DNA of 64,000 nucleotides from a virus (IMGVR_UViG_2582581314_000001:1-64000); one strand, 5' to 3'. Positions 7,311 through 37,095 are shown, numbered from the stretch's first letter. Translations and numbers: made by a program. The notes: generated by a model not told the origin, from the sequence alone.

Positions 7311-7346
7311 GCCCGGCCCAAAACCAGCAGCTCAGTGGGAAGTGTA
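7311..7346 (-). promoter_or_regulatory. Late element copy 1: TACACT-N9-GCTGCTGGTTTTGGGCCGGGC
   Basis: One of 10 copies; upstream of the endolysin. Confidence 0.8.
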
Positions 7347-7359
7347 AAGCCCCAGTGCT

Positions 7360-7659
7360 CTACGCGTTCTCTTCGATCTTCGGCTGGGGCGCTGTGTAGC
7401 CGGACAGGGTCTGCGCGACATCCGGAGTGAAGCCCGCCGCCACGAGCGCGTCGTACGCGTCCTTGTGGCGCGCGTTCTCCTGCGCCTGGGTGTCGGCCTG
7501 GCGCTGCTCCTGGGCCGCCTCGATCGCCGCTTTCTTCGCAGCGTAGTCCGCCGCCGTCAGCAGCGTCACGCCCTGCGGGTGAACCGGGTTGTCTGCGGTC
7601 GTGACGCGCTCGGCCACCGAGCCGTCCGGGTACTCGTAGTAGAAGGTCTGTTCTTCCAT
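7360..7659 (-). CDS. Small protein following a tail-fibre-like gene (possible chaperone)
   Basis: YEYPDGS...AL...G...A..LSGY; paralogous to 8424..8756. Confidence 0.7.
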   Translation of the reverse strand: MEEQTFYYEYPDGSVAERVTTADNPVHPQGVTLLTAADYAAKKAAIEAAQEQRQADTQAQENARHKDAYDALVAAGFTPDVAQTLSGYTAPQPKIEENA

Positions 7660-7672
7660 GGCTGGGCTCCCG

Positions 7673-8362
7673 TCAGCTGAACTGGTTGGACCAGACCCAC
7701 GCGCGCAGCGACTTCTGGATGCGGGTGATCGTCGCGCCGCCGCTGCCGCGACCGGCTTCGATGTCCATCGTGATCGTGCGCGTCTCCCCCGGGTTCAGCG
7801 TGAACACGGTGATCTTGTTGTCCTGTGAGTGGGTGCTGAAGATCGTCGCGTTGCCCTGGTTGCCCAGATAGTTCATGTTGTCGCCGTCGATGCCGGCCAT
7901 GGCGCCCGAGCCCGGCGGCAGTGTGAAGTCGAGGTCGACCTCACGAAACAGCAGTCCCAGTCCGCGGCGGCACGGGTCCGGGTTCCTGATGTCGATCGAG
8001 ATCGTGTCGATGACCGCCGATGCTGCGGTAGGCACCGGGAGCGGTGTGCTCAACGCGGTGGTGAGCTGGTCCCCTTGGAAGTCCGCCCAGTAGGGGGGAT
8101 CGGTGCGCAGTTCGCCCGTGACGGGGTCGCAGTACACGCCTCCGGCGGCGGCATCGAGGTCGCACGCGTACGCCCATGTGCCGACGTGCGCGGCGAGGGG
8201 AGCCGACTCGGTGCCGTCACCGGTCAGACCGCAACCGGTCACCGGCGGCTTCGCGCTGATGACGTAGGGGTTCGTCGTGCTGCCACTGCCGACGACCACG
8301 ACGCCAGTACCCGCAGTGACGGTGCACGCGCATCTGCGGCTGCCGCACCCGCAACCGGCCAA
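7673..8362 (-). CDS. Minor tail/fibre-like protein (paralog A)
   Basis: TTG start with GAGGAG RBS; GSGS..NPYVISA and GCGLTGDG..SAP motifs. Confidence 0.7.
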   Translation of the reverse strand: MAGCGCGSRRCACTVTAGTGVVVVGSGSTTNPYVISAKPPVTGCGLTGDGTESAPLAAHVGTWAYACDLDAAAGGVYCDPVTGELRTDPPYWADFQGDQLTTALSTPLPVPTAASAVIDTISIDIRNPDPCRRGLGLLFREVDLDFTLPPGSGAMAGIDGDNMNYLGNQGNATIFSTHSQDNKITVFTLNPGETRTITMDIEAGRGSGGATITRIQKSLRAWVWSNQFS

Positions 8363-8391
8363 GGGGACCACTCCTCATGCGGAGAGTTCTC

Positions 8392-8426
8392 GCCCGGCCC
8401 ACAACCAGCGGCTACCTGGGAGTCTA
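8392..8426 (-). promoter_or_regulatory. Late element copy 2: TAGACT-N8-GCCGCTGGTTGTGGGCCGGGC
   Basis: Repeat family; the -10 overlaps the upstream stop codon. Confidence 0.8.
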
Positions 8427-8756
8427 ACTTTCCTTCCGGGCTGGTCCGCCGTAGCCGGACAGGCGGCGCGCGGTCTCCTCGGCGAGGCCGAGCAGGGTGA
8501 GCGCCGTGTAGTCCGCGTGGGCCAGCCCCTGCTGCATGGCTTCCTCGTCGGCGAGGACCGCGGCCTCCAGGTCCTCCATCGCCTTGACCCGAGCCAGGTA
8601 GTCCGCCTCCTCAACGAAGCAGCCGGGGCGGGACAGTTCGGGTGCGGCACCGGTGGTGACTTCGATACGGCCGGCTGTGCCGTCCTCGTAAATGACGTGG
8701 TAGACGGCCGATACAGGTTCGGCCGGCGCGACGCTTTCAAGCATGGTCGTCCTCAC
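8424..8756 (-). CDS. Small protein following a tail-fibre-like gene (possible chaperone)
   Basis: YEDGT...AL..LG...ARRLSGY. Confidence 0.7.
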   Translation of the reverse strand: MRTTMLESVAPAEPVSAVYHVIYEDGTAGRIEVTTGAAPELSRPGCFVEEADYLARVKAMEDLEAAVLADEEAMQQGLAHADYTALTLLGLAEETARRLSGYGGPARKES

Positions 8757-9583
8757 AGGCTGAGCATCAAGCAGCGGATGATGGCGATGATCTGGGTGTA
8801 GCGGGCGCCGCCGGAGCCTCGCCCGACCGTGGCATCAAAGCTGACCGTCAGGGTGCCGCCCGGGGGGATCGTGCCGCCCGGAAGGACCTTGGTGGCCTGC
8901 GCGTGCGCGCCGCTGATGGTGCTCGATCCGCTGTTGCGGGTGTAGTACATCTCGTCGCCGTTGAAGCCCGTCGCCGCTCCGGCGCCAGCGGGAAGGGTCA
9001 GGAAAACGTCCACCTCGCGCTCTACGACCACGAAGGCCGGGCGGCACGTGTCCGGGTTGGTGATTGTGGTGGAGAACGTGTCCGCCCGCTGGATACTCCC
9101 GGACGGGACCGCCCTGTTGTAGGTCCGGCTCTCCGAGTACTGAGGCATCGAGACCTTCCCGCGCGGCTCCGAGCGCAGGACGCCGTTGCTGTCACAGGCC
9201 ACGACACCACCGAAGGTGTCCACGTCGCACGCATACGGCCACGCCCCGGTGTTGGCCGTGACAGGCGCACTGGCGGAGCCGTCACCGGTGAGGCCACACC
9301 CAACGCTCACCGTCGCCGCCCCGGTCGGCACGAACAGGCCGCCGTCCGGGCCGATGGCGACGTTGTTGCCGGCCTGGCCGGACAGGTGCGCTGATACGAC
9401 GCCGGTCGACGAGTCGTAGCTGATGCCGTCCCCGGCCGAGATACACGGGCGGACGTCCTCACAGCCGATGACGGCCGAGACCACATAGGGGTTCAGCGTG
9501 CTGCCCGCGCCCGTCACTTCGGCGTTCTCACCGGCGATGACCACGCAGTTGCAGCCGCCGCCGCCACACTGACACCTGGCCAA
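8753..9583 (-). CDS. Minor tail/fibre-like protein (paralog B)
   Basis: TTG start; MARCQCGGGGCNC, GAGS..NPYVVSA, GCGLTGDGSASAP. Confidence 0.7.
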   Translation of the reverse strand: MARCQCGGGGCNCVVIAGENAEVTGAGSTLNPYVVSAVIGCEDVRPCISAGDGISYDSSTGVVSAHLSGQAGNNVAIGPDGGLFVPTGAATVSVGCGLTGDGSASAPVTANTGAWPYACDVDTFGGVVACDSNGVLRSEPRGKVSMPQYSESRTYNRAVPSGSIQRADTFSTTITNPDTCRPAFVVVEREVDVFLTLPAGAGAATGFNGDEMYYTRNSGSSTISGAHAQATKVLPGGTIPPGGTLTVSFDATVGRGSGGARYTQIIAIIRCLMLSL

Positions 9584-9610
9584 GATGCCCCGCCCTTCAA
9601 GGTGATCTCG

Positions 9611-9646
9611 GCCCGGCCCACAACCAGCGGCGTGAACGTCAGTCTA
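9611..9646 (-). promoter_or_regulatory. Late element copy 3: TAGACT-N9-motif
   Basis: Repeat family. Confidence 0.8.
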
Positions 9647-9678
9647 CGGCGCGGGACAACGCCCCCAACTGCGGCAGA

Positions 9679-10401
9679 TCAGCCGTACAGCTCCACGATC
9701 ACGCAACCCACGCCGCCCGGCGAGCCGTTGACGGACCCGCCGTAGGAGAGGCCTCCGCCAGCGCCGCCACCGAAGCCACGCGGCCCGGTGCCGTTGCCTT
9801 CGCTCGCGCGCGCCTGCCCGCCGTGGCCCATGTAGGACTCCCCGCCTCCGCCGGAAATCCCGTTGGTGCCGTTGAGGCGGATCGCGCCTCCGCCGGGGGC
9901 GCCGCCCTGCGCGAACTGGCCGCGGCCGGCGAACGGGGCCGCCGCGCCCGACGACACGTCCGCCGCCGTGCCGGACGTCTGGATCGCGTGTCCCCCGTCG
10001 CCCCCGTTGGCCGTCACGAACCCGCCGAAGGAACTGCTGCCGCCCGCTCCGCCGCTCGTAGCCGTTCCGCCCGCGTCACCGCCGGCCCCCACCACGATGG
10101 TCTCCACAGCGCCCAGCGACGACGCGGCGATCAGCTGCTCGCTGTAGCCGCCGCCCGCGCCTCCGGGGCGCACGATGCACTGGTTGGCGGCCGCGTTCGC
10201 TCCGGCCGAGCCGCCTCCGCCCGCCTGGACCCGGACGAACACCCTCGCCACCCACGGGTAGTCGGCTTTGCGGAACTGGAAGGTCCCCGGGTCGTTGTGG
10301 ACGACGACCTGGCGCAGGCCCATCGTGCCCGGCTTGAGGCAGAGTTCGCCGGTGCCGCTGTCCACGGTGAAGTAGTCGTCGCATACGCAGGCGCGCGCCA
10401 T
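9679..10401 (-). CDS. Glycine-rich tail protein
   Basis: VQAGGGGS, GGAGGGY, GGSSSFG and GCVIVE motifs of the phage glycine-rich domain. Confidence 0.75.
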   Translation of the reverse strand: MARACVCDDYFTVDSGTGELCLKPGTMGLRQVVVHNDPGTFQFRKADYPWVARVFVRVQAGGGGSAGANAAANQCIVRPGGAGGGYSEQLIAASSLGAVETIVVGAGGDAGGTATSGGAGGSSSFGGFVTANGGDGGHAIQTSGTAADVSSGAAAPFAGRGQFAQGGAPGGGAIRLNGTNGISGGGGESYMGHGGQARASEGNGTGPRGFGGGAGGGLSYGGSVNGSPGGVGCVIVELYG

Positions 10402-10428
10402 GAAAGCCCCTCCCGGGGAATCGCACGT

Positions 10429-10464
10429 GCCCGGCCCACAACCAGCGGCTACCCGCAGAGGTTA
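10429..10464 (-). promoter_or_regulatory. Late element copy 4: TAACCT-N9-motif
   Basis: Repeat family. Confidence 0.8.
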
Positions 10465-10950
10465 GCTGGCCGGTTCACCGCTCGCGGTGACGTGCACTTC
10501 CACACCGGCACCCGCAGGCGTCGCCGGCAGCATGTGCAGGCCGAGGAGCGGCTGCGTCTGCCACACGCGGACCGTCGCGCACTCGCCGGTCACCTGCTCC
10601 AGGGTCACCATCACCATGTGGTCGTCGCCCGGGTGGTGGTCGACGGGGAGCGCGCTGATCACCGGGGGCGCCGCGAACGGTACGTCGTACGTCCAGATTG
10701 CCCGGCCGTCCGCCCCCGTGGAGATGACCGCGGCAGCGGGCGCCGCCCCGCGTGGTCCGGGCGGCCCATGCTCACCACGCTCCCCCGGCGGCCCGGGCAG
10801 CCCCGGCTCACCCGGCGATCCAGGCTCGCCCTGCGGGCCGCGCCTGCCGGGCTTGCGCGACAGCGTCCTGGACTGGCGGTTCAGGTCGCGCAGGACGCCG
10901 CCCATCGGGTTGTCCAGCGTGCGCCGGGCTGCGGATCCTCGTACCGCCAT
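10462..10950 (-). CDS. Collagen-like (Gly-X-Y) minor tail protein
   Basis: GPQGEPGSPGEPGLPGPPGERGEHGPPGPRG. Confidence 0.75.
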   Translation of the reverse strand: MAVRGSAARRTLDNPMGGVLRDLNRQSRTLSRKPGRRGPQGEPGSPGEPGLPGPPGERGEHGPPGPRGAAPAAAVISTGADGRAIWTYDVPFAAPPVISALPVDHHPGDDHMVMVTLEQVTGECATVRVWQTQPLLGLHMLPATPAGAGVEVHVTASGEPAS

Positions 10951-11975
10951 CAGTCCTCCAACTCACTGCTCAGCGGGGCAAGCGTGACCTGGACGCTCTC
11001 GCCGCTACCGTCTTCCGACACCTTCACACCGTTGATCTTCAGCCGCTGCCGCAGCGGCCGGCAGGTCGCCTGCGTCGCCACATCCACGCTCCAACCCGGA
11101 ACGAGCCTGGCCACGTCCACCGCGGCCTCCGGCGACAGAGTCACCTCGTCGGAACTGAGGAACACCGGCACCGGATAGTTCGCCGCACGCCGAGACCGTG
11201 CCGCCGCCCCAGCCGAGGCGCTCGTCGTCACCGAGGTCTCCTCCACACTGCGCTCCAGCAGCCCGTAATAGGCGTCCGCGCCGCCCGAGACGCCCTTGAT
11301 GCCGCTGTCCTCGTCTCCGTGGACGATGTAGCGGGTGGCGAGCGCGGAGCCGTCCTCGGCCACGATGAGGCCCTCGGGGAAGTCAACATCCGTGAGCGTG
11401 CCGATATTGGCGTCCCAGTCCTCCGGCATGAGGACGATCGTGGAGCCGATCGCCGTGTAGTCCAGGCCGGTGTCCGCGAGGTCACGCAGGTGATCGCCGG
11501 TCTGCCCGATGTCCTCGGTGTACTGCCGGCCGCCCTCCACACCGGAGGGAGCCAGGATCTGCACGGTGTGACCCGGGTCGTCCGGCGCGAAGGCGTCCTC
11601 GATCAGCCAGTTCGCGATGTCGGTGAGGTCGGAGCCGTCGAACACGATCGACTGGTGCGGGACGCGCCGGTCAAGCCACACCAGGATGTCGGAGGCCCAC
11701 AACTCCACCTTCCCGAAAGACCACTCGGCCTGAATGATCGGCCCCTCCCACACGGTGACACCGTCGCGGGCAAGCACCAGCTTGTGACGCCACGTGCGCA
11801 CTCTGCCGAGCTGCGCGCAGCAGTCGCCGTCCGGATTGATCACGACGTGCGCCGTGCTCACGTCGTCCAGGATCCTCGTCCAGTCCACGGACACCAACGT
11901 GTCCGCCGGCGACACCACCGAGCCGCCCCGATCCACGATGTAGGCGGAGTGGACGCCACACCCTGCTGAAGACAA
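10950..11975 (-). CDS. Minor tail protein (siphovirus Gp37-like hub/baseplate)
   Basis: W.R.LDDVS.A and RDG.TVWEGPI motifs; position downstream of the tape measure and distal tail genes; TTG start. Confidence 0.7.
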   Translation of the reverse strand: MSSAGCGVHSAYIVDRGGSVVSPADTLVSVDWTRILDDVSTAHVVINPDGDCCAQLGRVRTWRHKLVLARDGVTVWEGPIIQAEWSFGKVELWASDILVWLDRRVPHQSIVFDGSDLTDIANWLIEDAFAPDDPGHTVQILAPSGVEGGRQYTEDIGQTGDHLRDLADTGLDYTAIGSTIVLMPEDWDANIGTLTDVDFPEGLIVAEDGSALATRYIVHGDEDSGIKGVSGGADAYYGLLERSVEETSVTTSASAGAAARSRRAANYPVPVFLSSDEVTLSPEAAVDVARLVPGWSVDVATQATCRPLRQRLKINGVKVSEDGSGESVQVTLAPLSSELED

Positions 11976-11998
11976 TGTGCCCCCTGCGGGAGAAGGAG

Positions 11999-12033
11999 GC
12001 CCGGCCCAAAACCAGCGGCGCAAACTCAGGTTA
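11999..12033 (-). promoter_or_regulatory. Late element copy 5: TAACCT-N8-motif
   Basis: Repeat family. Confidence 0.8.
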
Positions 12034-12144
12034 GTGCTCTAACCGGAAGGGCTCGGAATGCCACCGACCAGCTCGCAAGCGTCAGGAGCGGAAGACGCTT
12101 CAGAGAAGCACGCCAGAGCGCCTCGACCAGTGCGGAGTGCCGGC

Positions 12145-12855: not shown

Positions 12856-12927
12856 AGCCCGATGCTGCCACCGAACAGGGGCGCCGGGGTTCCAAGTTGG
12901 ACAATCTCCGCTCGGACCAGCGGACTC

Positions 12928-13479: not shown

Positions 13480-13590
13480 CTAGGCAGCGTATCGGGGGAG
13501 TTCAGGCTCTTGTGCGGAATCTCGATGGGTGTGGCTCCCGGGAGCTACACCCTTCTGACTTCGTCTCAGGTGACGGCCAGACCTACTTGG

Positions 13591-14931
13591 TCACCAGCCG
13601 CGGCCGGTGACGCCAATCGTCAGCCGCGCATCGTCGGCAGGCGGATGGATCGCGTCGGTCTCCAGGCAGACGCAGATCGAGGCGCAGTCGAACGCCGGCC
13701 ACGTCGGAGAGGCGCCGCCAGCCCCCCACACACTCGTGCTCGTCTCACAGTTGCCGCCGCACTCCACGGTGGCGCGGCCGATCTGCCCGTCCAGCACGAG
13801 CGTGCCACCGGCGGGGACGAACCCGACCTCGAACACGGCGAGCGGGTCGCAGCGCTTGCGGTCCGCGATCTCCGCGCACGACAGGTCCCCGTCCTGCTCG
13901 GTCCGCTCGTAGAAGGAGATCGTCAGCCGCCGCAGGTCCTCACTCCCGGCGAAGACCGAGATCACAGGCACGTCCGTGCCCCACGCCGGCCGGTTGGACA
14001 GGTCAAGCTCGTAGCACTCCCGGTTGGTGGCGAGCGCCTCACAGAAGCAGGAAGAGGGCACGGCCGGTTGCGGGGGCGACGGCGGTGTGCACGCCAGATC
14101 CGCGCACGCAGCCGCCACGTCCGGGCAGCCCGCGAGCCTGCACCCGCCGTCGGCGCACTCACCGGATGCTCCCGCCCCGGTGTGCAGACACCACGTGATG
14201 CACTCGGTGCCGTCGTCGGTCGGCAAGTGGACGTCCAGCAGCGGGATCTCGTCCGTCCACGCCCACGGGGTGGCGGCAACGAGAACGAACTCCACGGTGA
14301 TGACGTCCGCCCCGATGGAGCACCGCCCGGAGCTGCACGAGCCGTCGCCGTGCCGGGCCGTGACCGTCGGCCCCTCCACGAGCGCCACCCGCCGGTAGGT
14401 GCGGCGGTGCCGCTCGTTGAACTCCGCCGACGTCTCCTCCTCGCCGGGACAGCAGTTGAACATGGTCACGCAGTCGCCGCCGCACGCGCTGCCGGTGCAG
14501 CCCTGCAACGCCTCCGCCAAGAAGTGCAGTCCGTACTCCACGGCGCAGCAGGTGGCGCCGAGGAGGAGGCCGGTCACGGTAATGGTGCGCGGCTGCACCC
14601 GGGCGGGGCCGAGCGCGCCGCCGCCGACGACGGCGTTGGTGACCGTCCGCTTCACCGGGTAGTCGTCGATGCCGTCGAAGGAGAGCGGCAGGAACCCGGC
14701 GAAGTCGGCGGACTCGGGGACGTCGGGGTCGTACCAGGGTGCGGGGTTGTCCGGGTCGTCGGGTGTCGTGTACGGCCGGCCGTCCGGGTCGAGGACGTCG
14801 GGGGTGAGGGTGTCGCAGCCGCAGATGTCCGGGCCGGAGTCCAGCGGGGAGCCGACGGTCTCGAGGTAGGCGCGTAGGCGGGCCGTGTTGATGACCTCGA
14901 TACCGCCTACCTGGAGGAAGTCGGTCAGCAC
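13591..14931 (-). CDS. Cys-rich minor tail (distal-tail-like) protein
   Basis: Immediately follows the tape measure gene; R.ITVTG.L motif. Confidence 0.7.
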   Translation of the reverse strand: MLTDFLQVGGIEVINTARLRAYLETVGSPLDSGPDICGCDTLTPDVLDPDGRPYTTPDDPDNPAPWYDPDVPESADFAGFLPLSFDGIDDYPVKRTVTNAVVGGGALGPARVQPRTITVTGLLLGATCCAVEYGLHFLAEALQGCTGSACGGDCVTMFNCCPGEEETSAEFNERHRRTYRRVALVEGPTVTARHGDGSCSSGRCSIGADVITVEFVLVAATPWAWTDEIPLLDVHLPTDDGTECITWCLHTGAGASGECADGGCRLAGCPDVAAACADLACTPPSPPQPAVPSSCFCEALATNRECYELDLSNRPAWGTDVPVISVFAGSEDLRRLTISFYERTEQDGDLSCAEIADRKRCDPLAVFEVGFVPAGGTLVLDGQIGRATVECGGNCETSTSVWGAGGASPTWPAFDCASICVCLETDAIHPPADDARLTIGVTGRGW

Positions 14932-14955
14932 GTGGCACCCCTAATTCGGTGAGGT

Positions 14956-14989
14956 GCCCGGCCCAAAACCAGCGGCGTCCCTCAGCTTA
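14956..14989 (-). promoter_or_regulatory. Late element copy 6: TAAGCT-N7-motif
   Basis: Repeat family. Confidence 0.8.
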
Positions 14990-15004
14990 CGGCCGCCCAC
15001 CTCG

Positions 15005-18000
15005 TCACATGCTGTACGTCAGCGCCATGCGGTGCATGACCCGGGCGGCGGTCGTCTCGGCGTCGCCCACCTGGGAGATGTTGAACACGGGCGCGATGGT
15101 GACCCCGCCGTCGCTGCTGGACGAGGTGGAGCCGTCACCGCCGAGCATCTCGGCCAGACCCGACTGCGCGGCCAACTGCCGGGCCCGCTTCGGCTTCGTC
15201 AGCGGGATGATCACCTCGGGCCCTGCCTCGCCGACGAGGGCGTGCGTCGGCCCGAGGACGATGCCGCCCTCCGCGAAGGGCAGGTACTTGCGTACGGCCG
15301 ACGGGAGGCCGCTCTTGATGCTCGACATGATGCGGGAGCCGATGTTGCCCAGCGCGCCGACGATCCTTCCGGGCAGGCCGGAGAACAGGCTGACGATGCC
15401 GGAGATCAGGGAGGATACGGCGCTGCGCGCGCTGCCCACCGCCGAGCGGAAGACGCCCGCGAGCCGGGACCCGAGCCCGGACAGGGCGGAGACGATGCGC
15501 CCCGGCAGGCTCGTGAAGAAGGACACGATGGAGGAGCCGACGGCGCGGGCGGCGGACAGCGCGCTGGAGCCCGCCGACCGGAACACGGCGGCCAGCCGTC
15601 CGGGCAGCGCGGCGAGCGCGCCGGCGATGCGGCCCGGCAGTTGCGCGAAGAAGGAGGCCGCCGCAGAAAGGAACGAGGAGATCGCCGAGCGCGCGGAGCT
15701 GAACGCGGAGGAGAACGCGGACAGGATCATCGAGCCGAGCGAGGACAGCGCGGAGTAGATGCGGCCGGGCAGTGCGGTGAAGATGAACACCACCGCGGCG
15801 ATCGCGGTCAGCAGCGCGATTCCGACGGCGGCGACCGCCTGCACGAACAGGGTGACGAGCAGGCCAGGCAGCGCCGCCAGCCCGGACATGATCAGGCCGG
15901 GCAGAGACGTGAAGAACGAGACGACGCCCTGAAAGCCCGTGGTCAGGGCGGTTGTCACGGTGGTGACGAGCGTCGAGAAGAACGTCCCGATCATCGAGCC
16001 GAGCGCGCTGAGCCCGGCCACGATCAGCGACGGCAGGTTCGTGATGAACGTGACGACCGCGGTGATTGCGGTGATCAGGCCGGTCAGGACGCTGACGACG
16101 CCCTGGATGATCGGGACGACGACGTTGATCGCGACCCACGCCTCGAACCCGGCCTCAAGTTGCAGGACCGGCGCGAGGAGGTTCGTCACCATCACCAGCA
16201 GCGGGGCCAGGGCGGCGGCGAGGTTCGCGATCGGCGGCAGGATCGGCAATAGGGCCTGCAACATCGCCGAGAAGGCGTCGACGAGCGACGGCAGGATGGG
16301 CAGCAGCGCGTTCGTGAATGCGGAGATCAGCGGGACCAGAGCGACCGCGACCTGCGCGACGACGCCCGCCACCTGGGCCAGGACCGGTGAGAGGACCTGG
16401 AACATCTGCGCGACCGCCTGGCCGACGCCGGCCGCGAGCGGGGTCAGCGCGGTGACCAGGGCGACGAAGGCCTGCGTGAGCGGCGGCAGGACGGGCATGA
16501 GCGCGTCCACGAGCGCCGAGATGATCGGCGTGAACAGCGTCACGAGGACCTGCAAGGCAGGTGCCAGGGCCTGCGCCAGGACCGCCACCAGCTGACCGGC
16601 CAGGGGCAGCAGCGGGGCCAGGGCCGACAGGACGGAGCCGACCGCGGCACCGACGGGCCCCAGGCTCGGGCCGATGGCGGCGAGCCCGTCCGCGAGCGCG
16701 GACGCGACGGTCTGCAGGCTCGGCGCGATCGCCGCCAGGGCAGGACCGAGCGCGTTGATGACGCCGGTGATCGCCGGGCCCAGGGTGGCAAAGACCGGCG
16801 CGAGAGCGGGCGCTATCAGCCCGATCTGCGTGACGAGCGCGGACAGGATCGGCCCGAGCTGCGCGGCGATCGTGGCGACCGTCCGAAAGACGTTCCCGAC
16901 CGCCGCTTGCCCGGCCGCGCTCTGGACGAAGTCGCGGAACGCTCCCGTGATCGTCTGGAGGTTGTTGAGCAGCCCGCCGCCCGCACCGCTCGCAGCGGAG
17001 AAGACGCCGGAAAGGATGTGCCCCACGTTCAAGGCGATGGCGCCGAGCTCCTGGAAGACGCCGACCGCGCCCCTCACGGCGTCGACCGCCCGGCCCGACG
17101 CGGCGAACTCGGAAAGGAACGTTCCGACTTGCGCGCCGATCTGCCCGATCAACGAGCCGACCTGCGGGCCGAAGGCCTTCGCGACCGCCGCGGCGACGTC
17201 GAGGAAGCCCTTCGCGACCGGCTGAATCGCCGTAGCGAGACCCGATACGGCGCTCTGCGATGCCGACAGCACCGACCGGACAGCGTCGACAGCCTGGGAG
17301 CTGCGGACGTACTCCAGGACATTCCGCGCAGCGAGCCCCCATTGCTGCGCGATCCCGGTCAGGCCGGACTTCAGAGGACCGGCGAGAGCGTTCGCCGTCT
17401 TGGTGATCTGCCCGTCGAGATTCCCGAAGAAGGCGCTCTGTACGGACTGCTGGAGCTGGTCGAACGCCGGCTTCAGCGCGCGGACCTCAAGGGTCGCCTT
17501 CTGCGCCGCCGGGGTGAGCTTCTCCAGCTCCTTGTTGAACTTCTCCGAGCTGTCCGTCAGCGCGGACTTGAAGGCGTCGCCTACGCCGCTCAGCGCGAAC
17601 TTGAGCGTGCCGAGCGCTGCCCCGTACCCCAGGATGACGGCAGGACCAGCAGCGATGATCCCGGCCGCCGGGGCGAGCGCTGCCGTCAGGGAGATGACGC
17701 CCTGCGCGGCGCCCGCCGCGGCGATCCCTATCGCCGCGAACTTCAGGCCTTTCGCGAGGACGCCGCCGACGCTCCCGGCGACGCGGCCGAGACCGGCGAG
17801 CGCCCGCGTGAACCGGTCGTTGTCGACGTCGACGTTCGCGTTGACCCTCACGTCGGGCGGCCTGTGTCCCCTGATCCGCGCGTCGAACCCGTCCAGGTCG
17901 GGGAACACCCGGATCGCGATCTCTTCCCCAGCGAGCGCGGCGCGGACGCGCTCGACGAACCCCGTCAGATCCGGGGCGACAGGAATGTTGATCGAGTCGA

Positions 18001-18247
18001 GGGAGCGGAGCCCGGTGAGGAGCTGCGCGTCGAACCGCCGCAGGTCCGGGTCGACCCGGACGGTGACCGCAGCGGCGTCCAGGCCGCGCTGGATGTTGCG
18101 GCGGATCTGCCCGCCGAGGTCGCGGGTAGCCCGGTTGAGAGCGCGCTGAATCCGGATGCCGAGGTCACGCGCATCCGCGACAGCCCCGCTGTCATCCAGA
18201 TCGATCCGGATGACCGCGCGGCCGTAGTCCTCGTCCTCGCCGGCCAC
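15005..18247 (-). CDS. Tape measure protein
   Basis: 1080 aa, Ala/Gly/Leu-rich helical repeats, C-terminal FAEGGIV.GPT..LVGEAGPEVIIPL. Confidence 0.92.
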   Translation of the reverse strand: MAGEDEDYGRAVIRIDLDDSGAVADARDLGIRIQRALNRATRDLGGQIRRNIQRGLDAAAVTVRVDPDLRRFDAQLLTGLRSLDSINIPVAPDLTGFVERVRAALAGEEIAIRVFPDLDGFDARIRGHRPPDVRVNANVDVDNDRFTRALAGLGRVAGSVGGVLAKGLKFAAIGIAAAGAAQGVISLTAALAPAAGIIAAGPAVILGYGAALGTLKFALSGVGDAFKSALTDSSEKFNKELEKLTPAAQKATLEVRALKPAFDQLQQSVQSAFFGNLDGQITKTANALAGPLKSGLTGIAQQWGLAARNVLEYVRSSQAVDAVRSVLSASQSAVSGLATAIQPVAKGFLDVAAAVAKAFGPQVGSLIGQIGAQVGTFLSEFAASGRAVDAVRGAVGVFQELGAIALNVGHILSGVFSAASGAGGGLLNNLQTITGAFRDFVQSAAGQAAVGNVFRTVATIAAQLGPILSALVTQIGLIAPALAPVFATLGPAITGVINALGPALAAIAPSLQTVASALADGLAAIGPSLGPVGAAVGSVLSALAPLLPLAGQLVAVLAQALAPALQVLVTLFTPIISALVDALMPVLPPLTQAFVALVTALTPLAAGVGQAVAQMFQVLSPVLAQVAGVVAQVAVALVPLISAFTNALLPILPSLVDAFSAMLQALLPILPPIANLAAALAPLLVMVTNLLAPVLQLEAGFEAWVAINVVVPIIQGVVSVLTGLITAITAVVTFITNLPSLIVAGLSALGSMIGTFFSTLVTTVTTALTTGFQGVVSFFTSLPGLIMSGLAALPGLLVTLFVQAVAAVGIALLTAIAAVVFIFTALPGRIYSALSSLGSMILSAFSSAFSSARSAISSFLSAAASFFAQLPGRIAGALAALPGRLAAVFRSAGSSALSAARAVGSSIVSFFTSLPGRIVSALSGLGSRLAGVFRSAVGSARSAVSSLISGIVSLFSGLPGRIVGALGNIGSRIMSSIKSGLPSAVRKYLPFAEGGIVLGPTHALVGEAGPEVIIPLTKPKRARQLAAQSGLAEMLGGDGSTSSSSDGGVTIAPVFNISQVGDAETTAARVMHRMALTYSM

Positions 18248-18274: not shown

Positions 18275-18334
18275 GCCCGGCCCAGAACCAGCGGCTACGG
18301 CAGCGCCCGTGGGCCTGCCGTGATCTCCAGACTA
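18275..18334 (-). promoter_or_regulatory. Late element copy 7: TAGTCT-N33 (spacer contains an extra hairpin)-motif
   Basis: Repeat family; the spacer holds the ACGGCAG...CTGCCGT inverted repeat. Confidence 0.7.
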
Positions 18335-18339
18335 TCCGC

Positions 18340-18686
18340 CTACCTGCGGCCCTGTAGCCGCCCGTCCTCGGCCGCCGCCTGTGCCATCAGCGCTCGCGCC
18401 TGGCCCGGGTCCATGCGCGCCGCAGTGCGCGGCCGTCCCTCTTCGGCCGACCGCCGGCGGACTCCCTTCGGCGGCGCGTACAACTGGGCCTTGTTTCGGG
18501 CACGCGTGGCGTCGTCCTCCGCCGCCATGTCCATGGACACCTCGGCGGCGTTCAGAAGCCGCCTCAGCGGCCAGCCGTGCGGGTCGACGCCCTGGAGGGC
18601 GAGACTCCCGTCCCACGCCTCCCAGCCTGCCGCGATGGAGTCGAGGAGGCGGAAGACGACGTAGTAGGGCGGGTACCACCACCCCC
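18340..18686 (-). CDS. Tail assembly chaperone, frameshift (gpT-like) extension
   Basis: Open -1 frame with no good start, overlapping the chaperone at GGGGGTGGTGG, directly before the tape measure gene. Confidence 0.6.
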
Positions 18687-19103
18687 GTACAACTCGACGA
18701 CCCATTCGAGCAGTTCGACAATAACGCGGGTGGGTAGGCGGAGCTCGTCGACGACGCGGGCGCCCTCGTGCTGGGCGGCGAACTCCTCAGCCTGGTCGAG
18801 GTCGTGGAACGTCTCCAGCGTCTCACTGTCCTTGGTGACGTTCAGCCGCAGGAAAGTGTCCGCGGAGTCTTCGAGCATCTGCCGGGCGAGGAACAGGCGC
18901 AGCGCGCGGGCGGTGCGGCGGACGTCCTTCGGGTCGGCGTCGGCGAGGTTGTCGAGGTCGACACCCTTCGCTTTCTGCGCGTCGCGCAGCTCGGCGTACG
19001 CGTCCATGAACTCATCGCCCATGACCTCGGGTTGGAAGAGTAGCTCGGTCCCGCCGATGTCGGCGACGTGGGGCTCGGTGTGGAGTGCGAACGACTTCCT
19101 CAC
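18564..19103 (-). CDS. Tail assembly chaperone (gpG-like)
   Basis: Position before the tape measure gene; LLEWVVELYGGG. Confidence 0.7.
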   Translation of the reverse strand: MRKSFALHTEPHVADIGGTELLFQPEVMGDEFMDAYAELRDAQKAKGVDLDNLADADPKDVRRTARALRLFLARQMLEDSADTFLRLNVTKDSETLETFHDLDQAEEFAAQHEGARVVDELRLPTRVIVELLEWVVELYGGGGTRPTTSSSASSTPSRQAGRRGTGVSPSRASTRTAGR

Positions 19104-19128: not shown

Positions 19129-19164
19129 GCCCGGCCCAGAACCAGCGGCGTACCCGGCAGAGTA
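19129..19164 (-). promoter_or_regulatory. Late element copy 8: TACTCT-N9-motif
   Basis: Repeat family. Confidence 0.8.
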
Positions 19165-23996: not shown

Positions 23997-24031
23997 GTCC
24001 GGCCCACAACCAGCGACTGAGGCACAGTCTA
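23997..24031 (-). promoter_or_regulatory. Late element copy 9: TAGACT-N8-GTCGCTGGTTGTGGGCCGGAC
   Basis: Repeat family with a compensatory T-A pair. Confidence 0.8.
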
Positions 24032-34495: not shown

Positions 34496-35319
34496 GGGCA
34501 CAGCACCACCCGGATCGCTGCGGCCTCGCAGCACGCGACCTCGACCACGAACGACCGCTCGGCCAGAACGAACCGGTCGTTGGTGGTGATCCGGAAGCTC
34601 TCTTTATCCGTCTCCGGGACGACCTGCGGGGCCTCGCGCCTGATACGGATCGGGCCGGTGATGTACAGCCACGCCTCACCCGCGGGGGCCTGCGTGCAGT
34701 CCGGCGGCCCGACGTTCAAGGAGTAGCCGCTACCCATGATCACGCAGTTGCCCATGAGGGTCCGGGGAACACCGTCCTCCATGTGGACGACGTTGCAGCA
34801 GCCCAGCAACGCGGCGGCGCCGGCCGGGACGTGGAGGATGCCCTGCCCGCCGTAGTTCTCCGCGAGCCACCCCTCAAGGGCGGCCACACCCTGCGCGATG
34901 GACACGGCGCCCGCGGTGGGAGTGAGGTCGGCGGCCATGGGACAGAGCACATCCCGCGCAAACCACTCCTCCAGTGCGCGCTGCTCCCCCATGCGCAGCG
35001 TCTCGCGGGCGTGCTGGACCGCCTCCTCATACGGCCAGCCGACCGTGGAGCAGGTAGCCCCGGCGTAGATGGTGATCGGCGAGGCAGAGCACACGCCGGG
35101 CCGCTCGAACACCTTGGCCGTCGGCCCCGGGGTGGTGCTGTCCTCCGGGCACCACTCCCAGTCATGCGCGGCGGCACACGAGAGCGGCATCCACTCCGTG
35201 CCAAGGAGGTCGTGCACGTCCTCCACGTCGATGATGTCGACGCAGCCGCCGAGAATGCCGTGGGGCAACGGGGTGCCCGGGACGGCATCAACGCGCTTAC
35301 GGAGTCCGGCTGATGGCAT
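34492..35319 (-). CDS. Capsid-associated protein following the MCP
   Basis: Position; EQRALE, G.LHVP, TND..VLAER. Confidence 0.65.
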   Translation of the reverse strand: MPSAGLRKRVDAVPGTPLPHGILGGCVDIIDVEDVHDLLGTEWMPLSCAAAHDWEWCPEDSTTPGPTAKVFERPGVCSASPITIYAGATCSTVGWPYEEAVQHARETLRMGEQRALEEWFARDVLCPMAADLTPTAGAVSIAQGVAALEGWLAENYGGQGILHVPAGAAALLGCCNVVHMEDGVPRTLMGNCVIMGSGYSLNVGPPDCTQAPAGEAWLYITGPIRIRREAPQVVPETDKESFRITTNDRFVLAERSFVVEVACCEAAAIRVVLCP

Positions 35320-35342
35320 CTGCCTCACCTCCTCTCATCCGG

Positions 35343-35374
35343 GCAGCTCCGGCCTGGCAGAAGGCCGGGGCTGC
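35343..35374 (-). terminator. Hairpin after the major capsid gene
   Basis: gcagctccggcct...aggccggggctgc. Confidence 0.55.
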
Positions 35375-35392
35375 GTGTCCGGGAGAAGGGGG

Positions 35393-37033
35393 TCAGCTGC
35401 TGCCGGCGGCGCAGACGAGCTCCAGCTGCGCGCCGGTAGCGCCGTCCGGGCAGACCGGGACAGTGACGATGCGGGTGTCCACCGAGCGGTCGACGAGGGC
35501 GGAGCATTCCTCCGCGAAGAGAGCCGTGTAGTCGTTGGTGACGAACTTCGTACTGTCGTGCACGACGCCGAGGTTGACCTCCTCGCCGCGACCGATCTGG
35601 AGGGTGCCGGACGGGTACATGAGGAACCGCACCGCGGCGGGCCAGTCGACGGCTACGTTGGCGCCGCCGATCTCGTCCGGGACAGCCGGGGACAGGCCGC
35701 GTGCGAACTGCACGCGCACCCCGAGCGTGCTGAACACGTCCTGGATGCAGGTCGGGCTCAGGTCACAGATGTTGACGCCGTTCTGCCGCGCCAGGTCGGA
35801 CAGGAACAGGTTCCGCGACCACCAGGGGAACACGACCTCCAGGGCCGTGGTCTCGCAGAGGCTGTGCCGCTCGATGACGTCGGCGGCCTGGAGGGCGACC
35901 GCGCCGTAGATTGCGGACAGGGCGCCGAACGTCGGCGCGAGCACGACCGGGGTCGCGGTGTTCAGGGCCTGCTGGAACAGGACCTGCTTCACCCGGATCT
36001 CGTGGGCGACCATGGCGTTGCGGAGGTACCAGGCCACCAGCTCCGGGAAGTGGCGCTGCGTCAGGATGCCCGCCTCCAGACACACACCGATGGCGTCGCA
36101 GCGGACCTCTACCGGGTCCGGGCACGGGATGCGGAAGCAGGGCTTCGTCGCGCCGGAGATGTCGTCGGCCTCGGTGTGGACCCACGTCATCGCGCCGACG
36201 TCCAGGGACAGCGGCTTGTAGTAGCGCAGGCCACCGCGAGCGAGCTGGATCTCGGGGGCGTCCCACAGCATGTCCGGGCAGGCCACGCCGGTGATGTCGT
36301 ACAGCGTCTCCGACGGGGCGCACCAGCCGCCGGAGGCGACGAGTTCACCCTGCGGGAGCCGCGCTTGGTTCTGCGCGGCGATCGCCACGGTGGTGCCCTC
36401 GGGCGCGGAGCTGGAGTCGGTGACGATCAGCTCGTCCGGGTACGGGTGCCGGTAGGAGATGACCTGGCCGGTGCCGCCACCGGCGGTCTTGAGGGCGTTG
36501 GCGCGGCTGATGATGCCGGTGACGACCTGCCCGAAGTCCAGCGGGGCGCCCGGGGTGTAGCCGGGGACGTCGACGGCCGCAGTGATGTGCGTGCCCGGGG
36601 CCGGCGGCTCGGGAAGGACGCGCGGCTGCACGGCTCGCACCGAGGCGAGGTTGAGGGCGGGGCGCCGCGCCAAGGACGCGGAGGCTGCCACGACCGGCTC
36701 CGGCTCCGAGGCGGCCTCCACCTCGGCCGGGACCTCCTCGGCGACGGGCTCCTCCACGGCCGGGGCCGCGTTCGGGTCGTCGCCGCGAACCTGCGCGGCC
36801 AGCTGCTCGATCTCCGCAGCGGCAGCCCTGGCGGCGGTGATGCGGTCGTTCTGCTCCGTACGCATGGCCTCAACACCGGAGGCAAGAGAGCGGAGTTCGT
36901 TGATGTCCTTCTCGGTGACGAGGCTGGACGTTGCCTTGGCATCGAAGGCCTGGACGGCGCCCGCAAGGGCCGCAGCAAGCTGCTCGTCGTCCAGGGACGT
37001 GAGGTCTTCGGGGAGCTCGAACGGCTCGGGCAT
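35393..37033 (-). CDS. Major capsid protein with N-terminal scaffold-like region
   Basis: LVASGGWCAPSE..YD, RGG, FPELVA, LGVVHDS...NDY; coiled N-terminus. Confidence 0.88.
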   Translation of the reverse strand: MPEPFELPEDLTSLDDEQLAAALAGAVQAFDAKATSSLVTEKDINELRSLASGVEAMRTEQNDRITAARAAAAEIEQLAAQVRGDDPNAAPAVEEPVAEEVPAEVEAASEPEPVVAASASLARRPALNLASVRAVQPRVLPEPPAPGTHITAAVDVPGYTPGAPLDFGQVVTGIISRANALKTAGGGTGQVISYRHPYPDELIVTDSSSAPEGTTVAIAAQNQARLPQGELVASGGWCAPSETLYDITGVACPDMLWDAPEIQLARGGLRYYKPLSLDVGAMTWVHTEADDISGATKPCFRIPCPDPVEVRCDAIGVCLEAGILTQRHFPELVAWYLRNAMVAHEIRVKQVLFQQALNTATPVVLAPTFGALSAIYGAVALQAADVIERHSLCETTALEVVFPWWSRNLFLSDLARQNGVNICDLSPTCIQDVFSTLGVRVQFARGLSPAVPDEIGGANVAVDWPAAVRFLMYPSGTLQIGRGEEVNLGVVHDSTKFVTNDYTALFAEECSALVDRSVDTRIVTVPVCPDGATGAQLELVCAAGSS

Positions 37034-37061
37034 GACCGGTGTCTCCTGTGGGATCAAGGAG

Positions 37062-37095
37062 ACTCGGCCCTAAACCAGCAGTCGGAGGAATCTTA
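37062..37095 (-). promoter_or_regulatory. Late element copy 10: TAAGAT-N7-ACTGCTGGTTTAGGGCCGAGT
   Basis: Repeat family with two compensatory A-T/T-A pairs. Confidence 0.78.

Follow-up and report, generated by a model that had tools for sequence, protein, structure and literature searches.

Which described systems come closest to a short repeated signal that stands in front of many genes of one phage? The stoperators of cluster A mycobacteriophages are asymmetric sites of 13-14 bp that occur in many intergenic copies, in one orientation relative to transcription; they share the immunity-operator sequence and occur genome-wide. The lambda nut boxB and HK022 put sites are RNA hairpins that act in cis close to a promoter; their loop is conserved and their stem covaries, a genome has one or two of them, and they counter defined terminators. 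In the mom leader of phage Mu, Com acts on a small hairpin located 5' of a start-occluding helix, and the bound hairpin switches translation on. Stoperators of cluster A mycobacteriophages and relatives are mentioned in PMC13313380.

Microbacterium phages of cluster EC carry 12 copies per genome of an 18-bp asymmetric repeat, all in one orientation and in short gaps between genes; it begins with a -10-like TAGaCT and lies 21-30 bp upstream of start codons, before the ribosome binding site, and its authors state its function to be unknown (PMC7302621, available in part). The same portion of that paper describes the start-associated sequences (SAS/ESAS) that cluster K mycobacteriophages and Microbacterium phages of cluster EF carry ahead of certain start codons; these conserved repeats are thought to affect expression, their function is given as unknown, and SAS occupies the ribosome binding site itself (PMC7302621). 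Finally, the PeSLs of T4-like phages are composite promoter-terminator motifs at gene boundaries (PMC4122927, available in part).

A repeated signal in front of ten late genes

The window analysed here, a whole stretch of 64,000 nucleotides of Streptomyces phage DNA, contains ten copies of GCTGGTTNNGGGCCG, all on the minus strand, against an expectation of 0; shuffled sequences also give 0 exact matches. A preliminary description of this DNA had placed ten copies between genes, each upstream of a structural or lysis gene. Exact minus-strand matches confirm the position of every copy, and the placement holds for 10/10. Each 21-nt element follows a -10 hexamer, with which it forms a cassette:

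37062..37095, minus strand: cassette 1; -10 TAAGAT 37090-37095, 7-nt spacer, element ACT-GCTGGTTTAGGGCCG-AGT 37062-37082
35393..37033, minus strand: major head protein gene; phrog_777, E 7.6e-163; ATG 28 nt after element
23997..24031, minus strand: cassette 2; -10 TAGACT 24026-24031, 8-nt spacer, element GTC-...-GAC 23997-24017
23270..23968, minus strand: major tail protein gene; phrog_792, E 2.2e-92
19129..19164, minus strand: cassette 3; -10 TACTCT 19159-19164, 9-nt spacer, element GCC-...-GGC 19129-19149
18564..19103, minus strand: gene in tail assembly chaperone position; phrog_12617; homolog of TurkishDelight gene 26 (annotated tail assembly chaperone)
18275..18334, minus strand: cassette 4; -10 TAGTCT 18329-18334, 33-nt spacer, element 18275-18295
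15005..18247, minus strand: tape measure protein gene; phrog_305, E 3e-102
14956..14989, minus strand: cassette 5; -10 TAAGCT 14984-14989, 7-nt spacer, element 14956-14976
13591..14931, minus strand: phrog_838 protein gene; homolog of TurkishDelight gene 29 (annotated minor tail protein)
11999..12033, minus strand: cassette 6; -10 TAACCT 12028-12033, 8-nt spacer, element 11999-12019
10950..11975, minus strand: minor tail protein gene; phrog_837, E 4e-77
10429..10464, minus strand: cassette 7; -10 TAACCT 10459-10464, 9-nt spacer, element 10429-10449
9679..10401, minus strand: glycine-rich tail-fibre-like protein gene; phrog_863; Pfam Gly_rich_2
9611..9646, minus strand: cassette 8; -10 TAGACT 9641-9646, 9-nt spacer, element 9611-9631
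8753..9583, minus strand: 276-aa protein gene, TTG start; no family match; homologs in Mischief19 and Maih (tblastn)
8392..8426, minus strand: cassette 9; -10 TAGACT 8421-8426, 8-nt spacer, element 8392-8412
7673..8362, minus strand: 229-aa protein gene, function unknown; TTG start 8362; homolog in Mischief19
7311..7346, minus strand: cassette 10; -10 TACACT 7341-7346, 9-nt spacer, element GCT-...-GGC 7311-7331
6473..7285, minus strand: endolysin gene (N-acetylmuramoyl-L-alanine amidase domain); phrog_1493; Pfam Amidase_2

The genes behind the cassettes are those for the major head, major tail, tail chaperone, tape measure, minor tail and fibre proteins, two unknowns and the endolysin. In the major tail gene, ATG 23968 agrees with the start kept in related leaders, and an in-frame TTG lies at 23974; in the minor tail gene, TTG 11975 is preferred over GTG 11936 because of its Shine-Dalgarno site. 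The chaperone-position gene (18564..19103) overlaps an open reading frame at 18340-18705, and the TAA of the cassette 7 hexamer doubles as the stop codon of the upstream gene.

All ten copies are confined to the late region, 7.3-37.1 kb, and no 11th copy at ≤1 mismatch is present in the whole 93,902-bp phage record. With ≤2 mismatches the window gives 17 matches versus 4.66 expected, the 7 extra ones falling on both strands and outside the cassettes. A covariance model scores the ten copies at 30.9-36.9 bits and the next window match at 16.4. None of the 13 specified core bases differs among the ten copies, positions 11-12 alone vary, and the outer triplets are GCC/GGC in seven copies and GCT/GGC, GTC/GAC and ACT/AGT in one each, exactly the pattern of covarying triplets, invariant core and two variable loop positions first noticed.

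The same cassette is present in Streptomyces phage TurkishDelight, in more than 119 IMG/VR stretches, and in more than 120 actinomycete genome stretches from nine genera. Variants in Woodruffvirus and Gordonia phages precede capsid and major tail genes only, tandem copies precede some genes in relatives, and a variant is carried by phage Maih, in which neither a repressor nor an integrase is among the 70 annotated features. A comparison of the whole window with Rfam gave 0 matches at the gathering score and, at E up to 10 in 7200-12100, three chance-level matches only, none at a copy, in agreement with the initial impression that the motif had not been described; the literature search likewise found no description or explanation of the signal. 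The promoter-plus-hairpin signal is common to hundreds of related phages and prophages.

The promoter-like part and the predicted transcript start

Which promoter signals does the cassette carry? A TAnnnT hexamer is present at 10/10 copies and lies 7-9 nt upstream of the element in 9/10 (P about 3e-21), against a background in which such a hexamer occurs 6-10 nt upstream at 0.41% of window positions, with 52 hexamers in total on the minus strand. The remaining copy, already singled out for its longer spacer, is the tape-measure copy at 18275 with 33 nt; that spacer (18296-18328) contains its own hairpin, and the layout recurs in the tape-measure leaders of other phages. In 97 of 113 related cassettes the hexamer is TAnnCT, with C at -8, and the region from -52 to -15 nowhere exceeds 0.2 bit of information, which bears out the lack of a conserved -35. 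Consensus promoter-like sites number 1 versus 0.9 expected, and that one lies away from any cassette. The -35 is missing from many actinobacterial promoters, and its absence here therefore does not exclude the host primary-sigma class.

The spacer between the -10 and the stem is 6-10 nt in 95/192 IMG/VR contexts, with a minimum of 6 and never below; in the genome-set contexts it is shorter than 6 in 3 versus exactly 6 in 34. This sharp lower limit in two data sets suggests that the whole stem would fall within the transcript, and it upholds the predicted placement of the element at about +1. The RNA data covered were metatranscriptome contigs of relatives, a kind of record that does not reveal where transcripts begin. 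All three outer pairs are intact in 91/95 contexts with a -10 located 5-10 nt upstream, versus 45/97 without one. For tandem second copies and tape-measure copies the distance to the -10 is not fixed and ranges from 23 to 39 nt. The cassettes at 19129 and 23997 have upstream neighbours on the opposite strand, so the late genes that follow need their own promoter. Together with the many promoter-like cassettes, this sustains the proposal of a distributed late control rather than a single operon.

The proposed stem-loop and its leader

The hairpin was originally conceived with a 7+6 stem closed by two loop nucleotides, but GCTGGTT and GGGCCG are not complementary in that geometry; we rejected it, and the data support a bulged stem-loop instead. 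The covariation persists in the larger alignment of 36 distinct sequences, where both partners of the three outer pairs have changed in 6, 10 and 5 sequences, counts that stem from about six or seven leader lineages, many rows being orthologs. In these 36 sequences 94.8% of outer-stem cells are paired, versus ≤60% with the partner slid, and the observed covariation score is reached by 0/500 shuffles. RNAalifold independently recovers the same outer stem plus a 4-bp inner stem. The outer stem contains 16 G-U cells versus 1 A-C cell, and since G-U is tolerated and A-C almost never, the structure appears to be read on the sense strand, in keeping with the strand-specific structure envisaged at the outset. 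The five inner pairs show no compensatory change in the 36 sequences: two are invariant, one is altered one-sidedly (U9-G15 to C9-G15 in 6 variant sequences), and two depart by unpaired cells only.

The folding energies speak against the reading put forward below. The RNAalifold consensus fold reaches only -4.56 kcal/mol; the element alone folds at -5.3 to -6.5 kcal/mol (z -0.03 to +1.68), no better than shuffles; in 10/10 full leaders the minimum-energy fold lacks the covarying outer stem; and only 2/10 full leaders fold better than shuffles at z ≤ -2. In addition, the two conserved blocks, GCTGG and GGCC, flank a variable middle and lie about one helical turn apart, a layout that would also suit a DNA-binding protein.

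In 96/103 leaders the distance from the end of the element to the start codon is 21-34 nt (mode 27), and a separate Shine-Dalgarno site follows the element. For 22 tape-measure leaders RNAalifold predicts an alternative helix between positions 18-21 of the element and the GCCC that immediately precedes the start codon, in which 3 compensatory A-U to C-G changes are seen; in nine capsid leaders it pairs positions 12-22 with the stretch from the Shine-Dalgarno site to the AUG. A helix occluding the start site is predicted for these two leader classes only. The interaction energy between element and downstream leader has a median of -9.6 versus -7.2 kcal/mol in control leaders (P 1.4e-6), and TTG starts are found in 19/96 motif leaders versus 1/105 other TurkishDelight genes, two comparisons whose P values overstate independence because many rows are orthologs. 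The Shine-Dalgarno site is less accessible in motif leaders than in controls (0.26 versus 0.37, P 0.003); with the element removed, motif leaders equal controls (0.36 versus 0.37, P 0.43), which counts against the reading put forward below. The element has no special complementarity to 16S rRNA.

We put forward, as an evenly balanced proposition, a -10-only promoter whose transcript starts with a conserved bulged stem-loop acting as RNA. Each copy would constitute a compact expression cassette. Its promoter, gcTAnnCT, would be of the host primary-sigma type and have no -35. Transcription would probably start 0-4 nt before the 21-nt element, so that the element would form the 5' end of the late mRNA, and the Shine-Dalgarno site and start codon would come about 27 nt after it. 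In the transcript, an outer stem of three covarying base pairs (1-3 with 19-21) and a GC bulge (positions 4-5) would lead into an invariant, G-U-rich inner stem (6-9 or 6-10 with 14/15-18) and an apical loop of 3-5 nt, and the invariant bulge, inner stem and loop would most likely be a recognition surface for a putative factor. The 3' half of the element (GGGCCGGGY) could alternatively pair with C-rich sequence surrounding the Shine-Dalgarno site and the start codon, and we propose that two leader states may result: in state A the hairpin would be formed and the start site free, and in state B the hairpin would be open and the start site occluded. The likely output would be control of translation and/or 5'-end-dependent stability of the late mRNAs. 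The Pfam families matched by 62 non-structural proteins include no RNA-binding domain, sigma factor or RNA polymerase, and no non-structural protein is common to all six compared phages and prophages.

Alternative explanations and known systems

Could the element be read as DNA? We regard a double-stranded operator at +1 to +21, at which a regulator would bind the core and block RNA polymerase until late or in the lysogen, as unlikely; in a less usual variant the bound regulator would activate the late promoter. The asymmetric invariant core, with its GCTGG and GGCC blocks about 10 bp apart around a variable middle, would suit such a site, nearly every true copy is tied to a promoter, some genes have tandem copies, the phage encodes several helix-turn-helix proteins, and strong promoters before the endolysin gene would need silencing in a lysogen. 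For a duplex site, however, covarying flanks and the asymmetry between G-U and A-C would be meaningless, and a sharp 6-nt spacer minimum would be unexpected. Moreover, the immunity region (90.9-92.4 kb) holds no copy closer than 3 mismatches and has its own, different repeat, Maih carries a variant without an annotated repressor or integrase, and the tandem copies, 23-39 nt apart, are unphased. The strand asymmetry and promoter-proximal position could also reflect a signal in the non-template DNA strand that sigma or a NusG/RfaH-like factor would recognise within the transcription bubble, which we consider highly improbable. The exposed non-template strand of the elongation-complex bubble is shorter than the 21 nt of the element, G-T pairs are poor in DNA, some copies lie 23-39 nt downstream, and no NusG-like gene appears among the Pfam families of the 62 proteins.

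Two further explanations keep the hairpin but give it a different role. As a nut-, put- or TAR-like loading site, the nascent hairpin, alone or with a factor, would modify the polymerase that made it for read-through of the long late region; in its favour, the hairpin is on the sense strand, its loop and bulge are conserved and its stem covaries, and it occurs at every late transcription unit, sometimes in tandem and always near a promoter. We nevertheless hold it to be improbable: terminator-like sites in 6000-25900 are about as frequent as chance predicts (7 versus 6.5 expected, Rho-dependent sites lying outside the count), the cassettes fill the intergenic gaps and leave terminators no room, ten promoters leave little need for long read-through, the fixed distance from element to start codon points to translation instead, and the Pfam families of the 62 proteins include no N-, Q- or NusG/Nus-like protein. 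Quite improbable, in our judgement, is a factor-free 5'-terminal protective hairpin that would form a high-expression cassette with a strong promoter and owe its sequence identity to recent spread by recombination; the repeats would double as recombination linkers that join modules. The predicted 5'-terminal position agrees with it, as do the Woodruffvirus and Gordonia copies, which precede only the genes for the most abundant virion proteins (capsid and major tail), and the accessory genes inserted directly upstream of the cassettes at 12002, 19132 and 24000. Yet prophages of nine genera carry the 21-mer unchanged while the adjacent proteins are 40-70% different, and a mere hairpin would drift in sequence; the fold is also too weak for good protection, and the tape-measure and tandem copies lie away from the 5' end.

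How, then, does the proposed promoter with its RNA stem-loop compare with described systems? As far as the available part of its description goes, the cluster EC repeat shares the -10-like start, the intergenic placement in one orientation and a similar distance to the start codon; after the hexamer its sequence is unrelated, no covarying stem is reported in that part, and its copies lie mostly among non-structural genes, whereas those here all precede late structural or lysis genes. SAS/ESAS, in the same partial source, are likewise conserved actinophage repeats upstream of selected start codons, but the distance of 21-34 nt in 96/103 leaders and the separate Shine-Dalgarno site led us to reject identity with them. 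The available text on PeSLs suggests a shared composite of promoter and stem-loop at gene boundaries, possibly acting as recombination linkers; the stem-loop here, in contrast, lies downstream of the promoter, inside the leader and before late genes. Stoperators are also asymmetric, multi-copy, intergenic and in one orientation. Each copy here, however, has its own -10 and covarying flanks, and a variant occurs in a phage without an annotated repressor; with no copy in the immunity region and all ten in the late region, we rejected a stoperator or immunity-repressor site.

The RNA systems provide the remaining parallels. With nut boxB and put the element would share a promoter-proximal RNA hairpin, a conserved loop and a covarying stem, and it differs in its ten sites and in the lack of a terminator excess. 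Although this phage has ten targets instead of one, an element fused to the promoter, no Com-like zinc-finger protein among the 62 examined, and an occluding helix predicted for two leader classes only, by analogy a working similar to that of Com on the mom leader may apply here.

The late-gene cassette and its leaders

Where do the copies of the late element, a 21-nt unit repeated on the minus strand between 7.3 and 37.1 kb, lie with respect to the genes? The preliminary description had placed ten copies at 7311, 8392, 9611, 10429, 11999, 14956, 18275, 19129, 23997 and 37062, each intergenic and upstream of a structural or lysis gene, and both claims hold. An exact search of the window for GCTGGTTNNGGGCCG returns these ten matches, all on the minus strand, and none in shuffled sequences; no further copies occur in the remainder of the 93,902-bp record. 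Each copy sits in a gap of 60-208 nt between minus-strand genes or adjoins an opposite-strand insertion. The genes 3' of the copies encode the major head, major tail, tail-chaperone-position and tape measure proteins, a member of phrog_838, a minor tail protein of phrog_837, a glycine-rich protein of the fibre type, an amidase endolysin, and two proteins without an assigned function. Allowing up to two mismatches gives 17 matches versus 4.66 expected, the seven extra matches falling on both strands and outside the cassettes (a cassette being a -10-like TAnnnT hexamer, a spacer and the late element). A covariance model scores the ten copies at 30.9-36.9 bits, and the next best match in the window at 16.4 bits.

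Recounting the spacing likewise upheld the claim that a TAnnnT hexamer precedes every copy, with a longer spacer at the tape measure gene: nine of the ten copies have the hexamer 7-9 nt upstream, the exception being the tape-measure copy, where the distance is 33 nt. TAnnnT is found 6-10 nt upstream of only 0.41% of window positions, and the probability that nine or more of ten copies would have one by chance is about 3e-21 (binomial); the window contains 52 minus-strand TAnnnT hexamers, ten of them at cassettes. In the tape-measure leader, a separate hairpin at 18296-18328 on the minus strand separates the -10 hexamer from the element, and tape-measure leaders of other phages have the same hexamer-hairpin-element layout with different hairpin sequences.

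The anatomy of the cassette was defined in 113 IMG/VR cassettes, with start-codon distances taken from 103 leaders. Their hexamer reads TAnnCT (97 of the 113 have C at -8), and there is a weak preference for G at -14 and C at -13. The -35 region of the 113 cassettes contains no signal, as the preliminary description had noted. The spacer between hexamer and stem is 6 nt in 20 IMG/VR cassettes, 7 in 20, 8 in 20, 9 in 19, 10 in 16 and 11 in seven, a few being longer and none shorter than 6 nt; in an independent genome set it is 1 nt (1), 5 (2), 6 (34), 7 (32), 8 (30), 9 (55) or 10 nt (15). Bacterial transcription starts about 7 nt after the -10 hexamer. If that is the case here, the 6-nt minimum means that the first base of the stem is never lost from the transcript. 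Downstream, 96 of 103 leaders have 21-34 nt (mode 27) between the end of the element and the start codon, and a purine-rich Shine-Dalgarno site is located at about +37 to +40. TTG is the start codon in 19 of 96 motif leaders versus one of 105 other annotated plus-strand genes of the relative TurkishDelight (Fisher P 4e-6), the motif-leader starts being assigned heuristically and many of them aligning with a conserved N-terminus.

Pairing within the element and at the translation start

Which bases of the element pair? The hairpin first proposed, with arms of 7 and 6 nt and a 2-nt loop, cannot pair in its register. The pairing that the data favour joins positions 1-3 to 19-21 (the outer stem), bulges positions 4-5, and continues through U6-G18, G7-C17, G8-C16 and Y9-G15 to a loop of 3-5 nt, possibly with U10-G14 as an extra inner pair. 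In an alignment of 36 distinct sequences 94.8% of cells are paired in this register, versus at most 60% once the partner has been shifted one to three columns along, and RNAalifold, unaided, returns the same outer stem with a 4-bp inner stem. The three outer pairs show two-sided changes in 6, 10 and 5 of the 36 sequences, and in 500 shuffles neither the covariation score nor the number of double changes ever comes up to the value observed. This covariation derives from about six or seven leader lineages. GTC/GAC occurs mostly in major tail leaders and ACY/RGT in capsid leaders. The outer stem has 16 G-U cells versus one A-C cell, and in the inner stem all six variant sequences have C9-G15 in place of U9-G15, which argues that the pairing is read on the sense strand. 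In tape-measure copies an additional base stands exactly at the bulge, and in the variants a change at position 10 (T or G) goes with one at position 13 (G or A). Registers resembling sigma-54 sites, T-arms or tetraloops, judged by eye, were dropped because position 19 covaries with position 3, not 5.

Two of the five inner pairs counted are invariant, one has changed on a single side, and the remaining two deviate only through unpaired cells; the 36 sequences contain no compensatory change at any of the five, and the inner pairs therefore prove nothing. Folded alone, the element attains only -5.3 to -6.5 kcal/mol and does not outperform shuffled sequences. Of the structured hairpin envisaged at late-gene 5' ends, the covariation of the outer 3 nt survives in the larger alignment and the original geometry does not.

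In the full leaders of the window the outer stem is absent from all ten minimum-energy folds, and in most of them the 3' half of the element is paired with bases close to the start codon. RNAalifold applied to 22 tape-measure leaders pairs positions 18-24 with a stretch ending just 5' of the start codon, a helix that has three compensatory changes at one pair and leaves the inner stem of the element in place; the tape-measure leader of the window folds at -40.7 kcal/mol (z = -4.5). In nine capsid leaders the predicted partner of positions 12-22 begins at the Shine-Dalgarno site and ends at the A of AUG. Across 96 leaders, in which orthologs are not independent, the median interaction energy of the element with its own downstream sequence is -9.6 kcal/mol, stronger than the -7.2 kcal/mol for fused control leaders (P 1.4e-6), and Shine-Dalgarno accessibility is 0.26 versus 0.37 in controls (P 0.003). 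When the element is omitted the difference disappears (0.36 versus 0.37); a general occlusion of the ribosome binding site was rejected, accessibility without the element being the same as in controls.

Distribution of the element and make-up of the source genome

The source record, of which the window is the first 64 kb, is rated complete by CheckV at 93,902 bp. The G+C content of the window is 65-72%, and the minus strand carries almost all of its genes. Among named phages, Streptomyces phage TurkishDelight (93.6 kb) comes closest: it is 80.7% identical in nucleotide sequence over 70% of a query that covers the capsid gene plus its upstream cassette, and its annotation includes an integrase, an immunity repressor and a Cro protein. 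TurkishDelight contains nine copies of the element (seven exact, two with one mismatch). Single copies precede the capsid gene, the tail chaperone gene, a minor tail gene, gene 32 and the tailspike gene, and tandem pairs precede the major tail and tape measure genes.

A 14-base version of the pattern matches at least 119 IMG/VR stretches, and many contigs among the matches listed hold 2-5 copies. The exact 21-mer (20 specified bases) occurs in at least 120 stretches of bacterial genomes. Among the matches listed, isolated phages and prophages share the element letter for letter, and the prophages reside in nine genera of actinomycetes from three orders: Streptomyces, Kitasatospora, Embleya, Actinacidiphila, Nonomuraea, Planotetraspora, Planomonospora, Sphaerisporangium and Micromonospora. 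A 36-nt query against 50,697 phage records found only TurkishDelight (two records of one phage) and three Gordonia phage records. The Woodruffvirus phages Maih and Mischief19 contain the variant GCTGGCGTTAGGCCG or GCTGGCGGTAGGCCG: Maih has it before the capsid and major tail genes alone, each copy being preceded by a hexamer at a distance of 8-9 nt, and in Mischief19 it precedes the capsid gene, a more divergent copy preceding the major tail gene. Likewise, Gordonia phage EMoore has GCTGGCTAGGGGCCG before its capsid and major tail genes. In 101 sampled Streptomyces genomes the covariance model gave a match at E up to 0.01 in 27. Of 12 loci inspected, only the one at 34.2 bits was a true cassette; the 11 at 28-32 bits have no TAnnnT in the 45 nt upstream and mostly resemble GC-rich coding sequence. 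The E-values of the model are therefore too generous, and about six of the 101 genomes are credible by a score above 33 bits or by clustering, two of these six having been inspected.

The stretch 44,821-63,860, continuing to about 70.5 kb of the record and including the terminase, has no tblastn match in TurkishDelight (E 1e-4) and is common to Kitasatospora and Embleya prophages at 30-84% identity; the genome is thus a mosaic of modules. Several genes lie beside the cassettes or between late genes.

Genes and open reading frames beside cassettes or between late genes (coordinates, strand, feature)
12145-12855, minus: 236-aa ORF without a family match, inserted beside the HNH endonuclease gene
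12928-13479, minus: HNH endonuclease gene, inserted between two minor tail genes
19372-20733, plus: 453-aa ORF whose match to AAA_16 ATPase is weak, below the Pfam cut-off
24153-24836, plus: ORF accompanying the fusion gene that follows
24843-25991, plus: helix-turn-helix and Peptidase_M78 (ImmA/IrrE) fusion gene, E 1e-22
26015-27997, minus: group 1 glycosyltransferase gene (660 aa) between the capsid gene and the major tail gene, the position of gene 20 in TurkishDelight
37150-37371, minus: small basic protein, 73 aa, pI 9.8, N-terminus M-x-C-x-C
37387-37539, minus: small basic protein, 50 aa, pI 9.2, N-terminus M-x-C-x-C

The insertion at 12145-13479 is immediately 5' of the cassette at 11999. 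The ORF at 19372-20733 is in DNA of lower G+C flanked by head-tail genes and the tail chaperone cassette, and the region 24153-25991, on the opposite strand and also of lower G+C, diverges from the major tail cassette. Both M-x-C-x-C proteins (37150-37539) are encoded just 5' of the capsid cassette, and M-A/S-x-C is also the N-terminus of several gene products 3' of cassettes.

The record contains other repeats. A second cassette, with core AACTGGCTAGGGCAAG, has nine copies, all on the minus strand, each core embedded in a unit of about 75 nt that is rich in A+T, and lying roughly 60-70 nt upstream of the start codon of a small non-structural gene. The arms flanking the core covary between copies, and its core CTGGCTAGGG is that of the Gordonia variant of the late element; the second cassette is absent from TurkishDelight. 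Three intergenic gaps contain a near-identical GC-rich hairpin with a GCAGGCAG-type loop, and these hairpins look like terminators or another repeated signal.

Other repeats (coordinates, strand where assigned, feature)
54718-54733, minus: second cassette
55278-55293, minus: second cassette
57113-57128, minus: second cassette
60092-60107, minus: second cassette
62663-62678, minus: second cassette
64507, 65716, 69025 and 70832 (record positions past the window), minus: second cassette
51764-51851: gap with GC-rich hairpin
52473-52554: gap with GC-rich hairpin
53302-53381: gap with GC-rich hairpin

Candidate factors, mechanism and relation to known repeats

What might recognize the element? The Pfam matches of 62 non-structural proteins fall in several helix-turn-helix families and in WhiB, ParB, RecT, methylase and other families; a sigma factor, an RNA polymerase or a known RNA-binding domain is not among them. 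A WhiB-like protein is the only regulator common to the window phage, TurkishDelight and Maih. It is present in only four of six comparators (the phages and prophages whose proteins were compared for a candidate element-binding factor) and absent from the 40-60 kb of upstream DNA examined in two prophages, those of Kitasatospora and Planotetraspora. Conservation does not extend to its arginine-rich tail, and as a candidate factor it is not supported. Upstream of the capsid gene, only the portal, the MuF-protease and a 110-aa DUF1360 protein occur in all six comparators, and none is regulator-like.

Several other roles were considered and rejected. Pairing with 16S rRNA is no better than chance would allow: 67 of 300 shuffles equal or beat the best duplex of the element with Streptomyces 16S rRNA, and 33 of 300 do so for the core alone. 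The element also stands apart from the ribosome binding site, unlike a start-associated sequence, and terminator-like sites in 6000-25900 are at chance level. As for a stoperator, the copies are restricted to the late region, and the immunity region (90.9-92.4 kb) holds no copy closer than three mismatches and carries a different repeat; Maih, moreover, has the variant and no annotated repressor or integrase. Within the immunity region, the divergent gap between Cro-like and repressor-like genes (91210-91591 of the record) contains repeated GCGTAG(T) words that are probably immunity operators and bear no relation to the late element. Two root metatranscriptome runs each contain 0.05 of the sampled words, and their contigs over 6000-25000 are 85-99% like the window and hence derive from relatives; some of these contigs span cassette sites (8105-8956, 9270-9732 and 14774-15518), but they mark neither start nor end sites and so do not bear on where transcripts begin.

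We propose that the most likely mechanism combines a promoter, an RNA hairpin and an alternative pairing that closes the start, the steps from the RNA onward being those we infer. A host-type, -10-only promoter would start the mRNA at the late element, which would form a sense-strand RNA hairpin whose invariant parts are recognized by a putative factor. The 3' half of the element could alternatively close the translation start, and hairpin formation or binding would then set the translation of late mRNAs, the stability of their 5' ends, or both. The main rival is that the element is a DNA operator. Such an operator accounts for the invariant, asymmetric core, but it leaves unexplained the covariation of the outer stem, the excess of G-U over A-C cells, the lower limit of the spacer, and the variant in a phage without an annotated repressor. 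Beyond the proposed RNA mechanism, we offer a broader reading tentatively, as one that is more probably wrong than right: all late mRNAs of a large actinomycete siphophage lineage would carry at their 5' end one and the same invariant bulged hairpin, an address label for an RNA-level late regulon whose sequence would be kept across hosts of three orders. A putative phage or host protein would bind it and either shift the leader from start-occluded to start-open or ride on the polymerase, and late expression would be governed mainly by steps that follow initiation, in ten or more units independent of one another.

A clear -10 hexamer, covariation and strand asymmetry that point to RNA, and letter-for-letter conservation together make the question of late control testable. 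The element would be a candidate for a new family of cis-regulatory RNA, it marks late transcription units in unannotated prophages, and the cassette may serve Streptomyces engineering as a compact, strong expression unit.

Finally, how does the element compare with known systems? The preliminary description had not recognized it as a described motif; in agreement, a scan of the window found no Rfam family match to it, and the literature searched yielded no published description. Late-gene control in actinobacteriophages is poorly understood, and several repeated intergenic motifs are unexplained (PMC7302621). For example, Microbacterium cluster EC phages contain an 18-bp, TAGaCT-led repeat 21-30 bp upstream of start codons (PMC7302621). 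It is of the same general kind as the late element, a repeated intergenic motif without a known role, and the supplementary motif figures of that paper could bear on the degree of likeness. Since unexplained repeats of this kind are already known in actinophages, the late element is a further case, new and better resolved than those before it.
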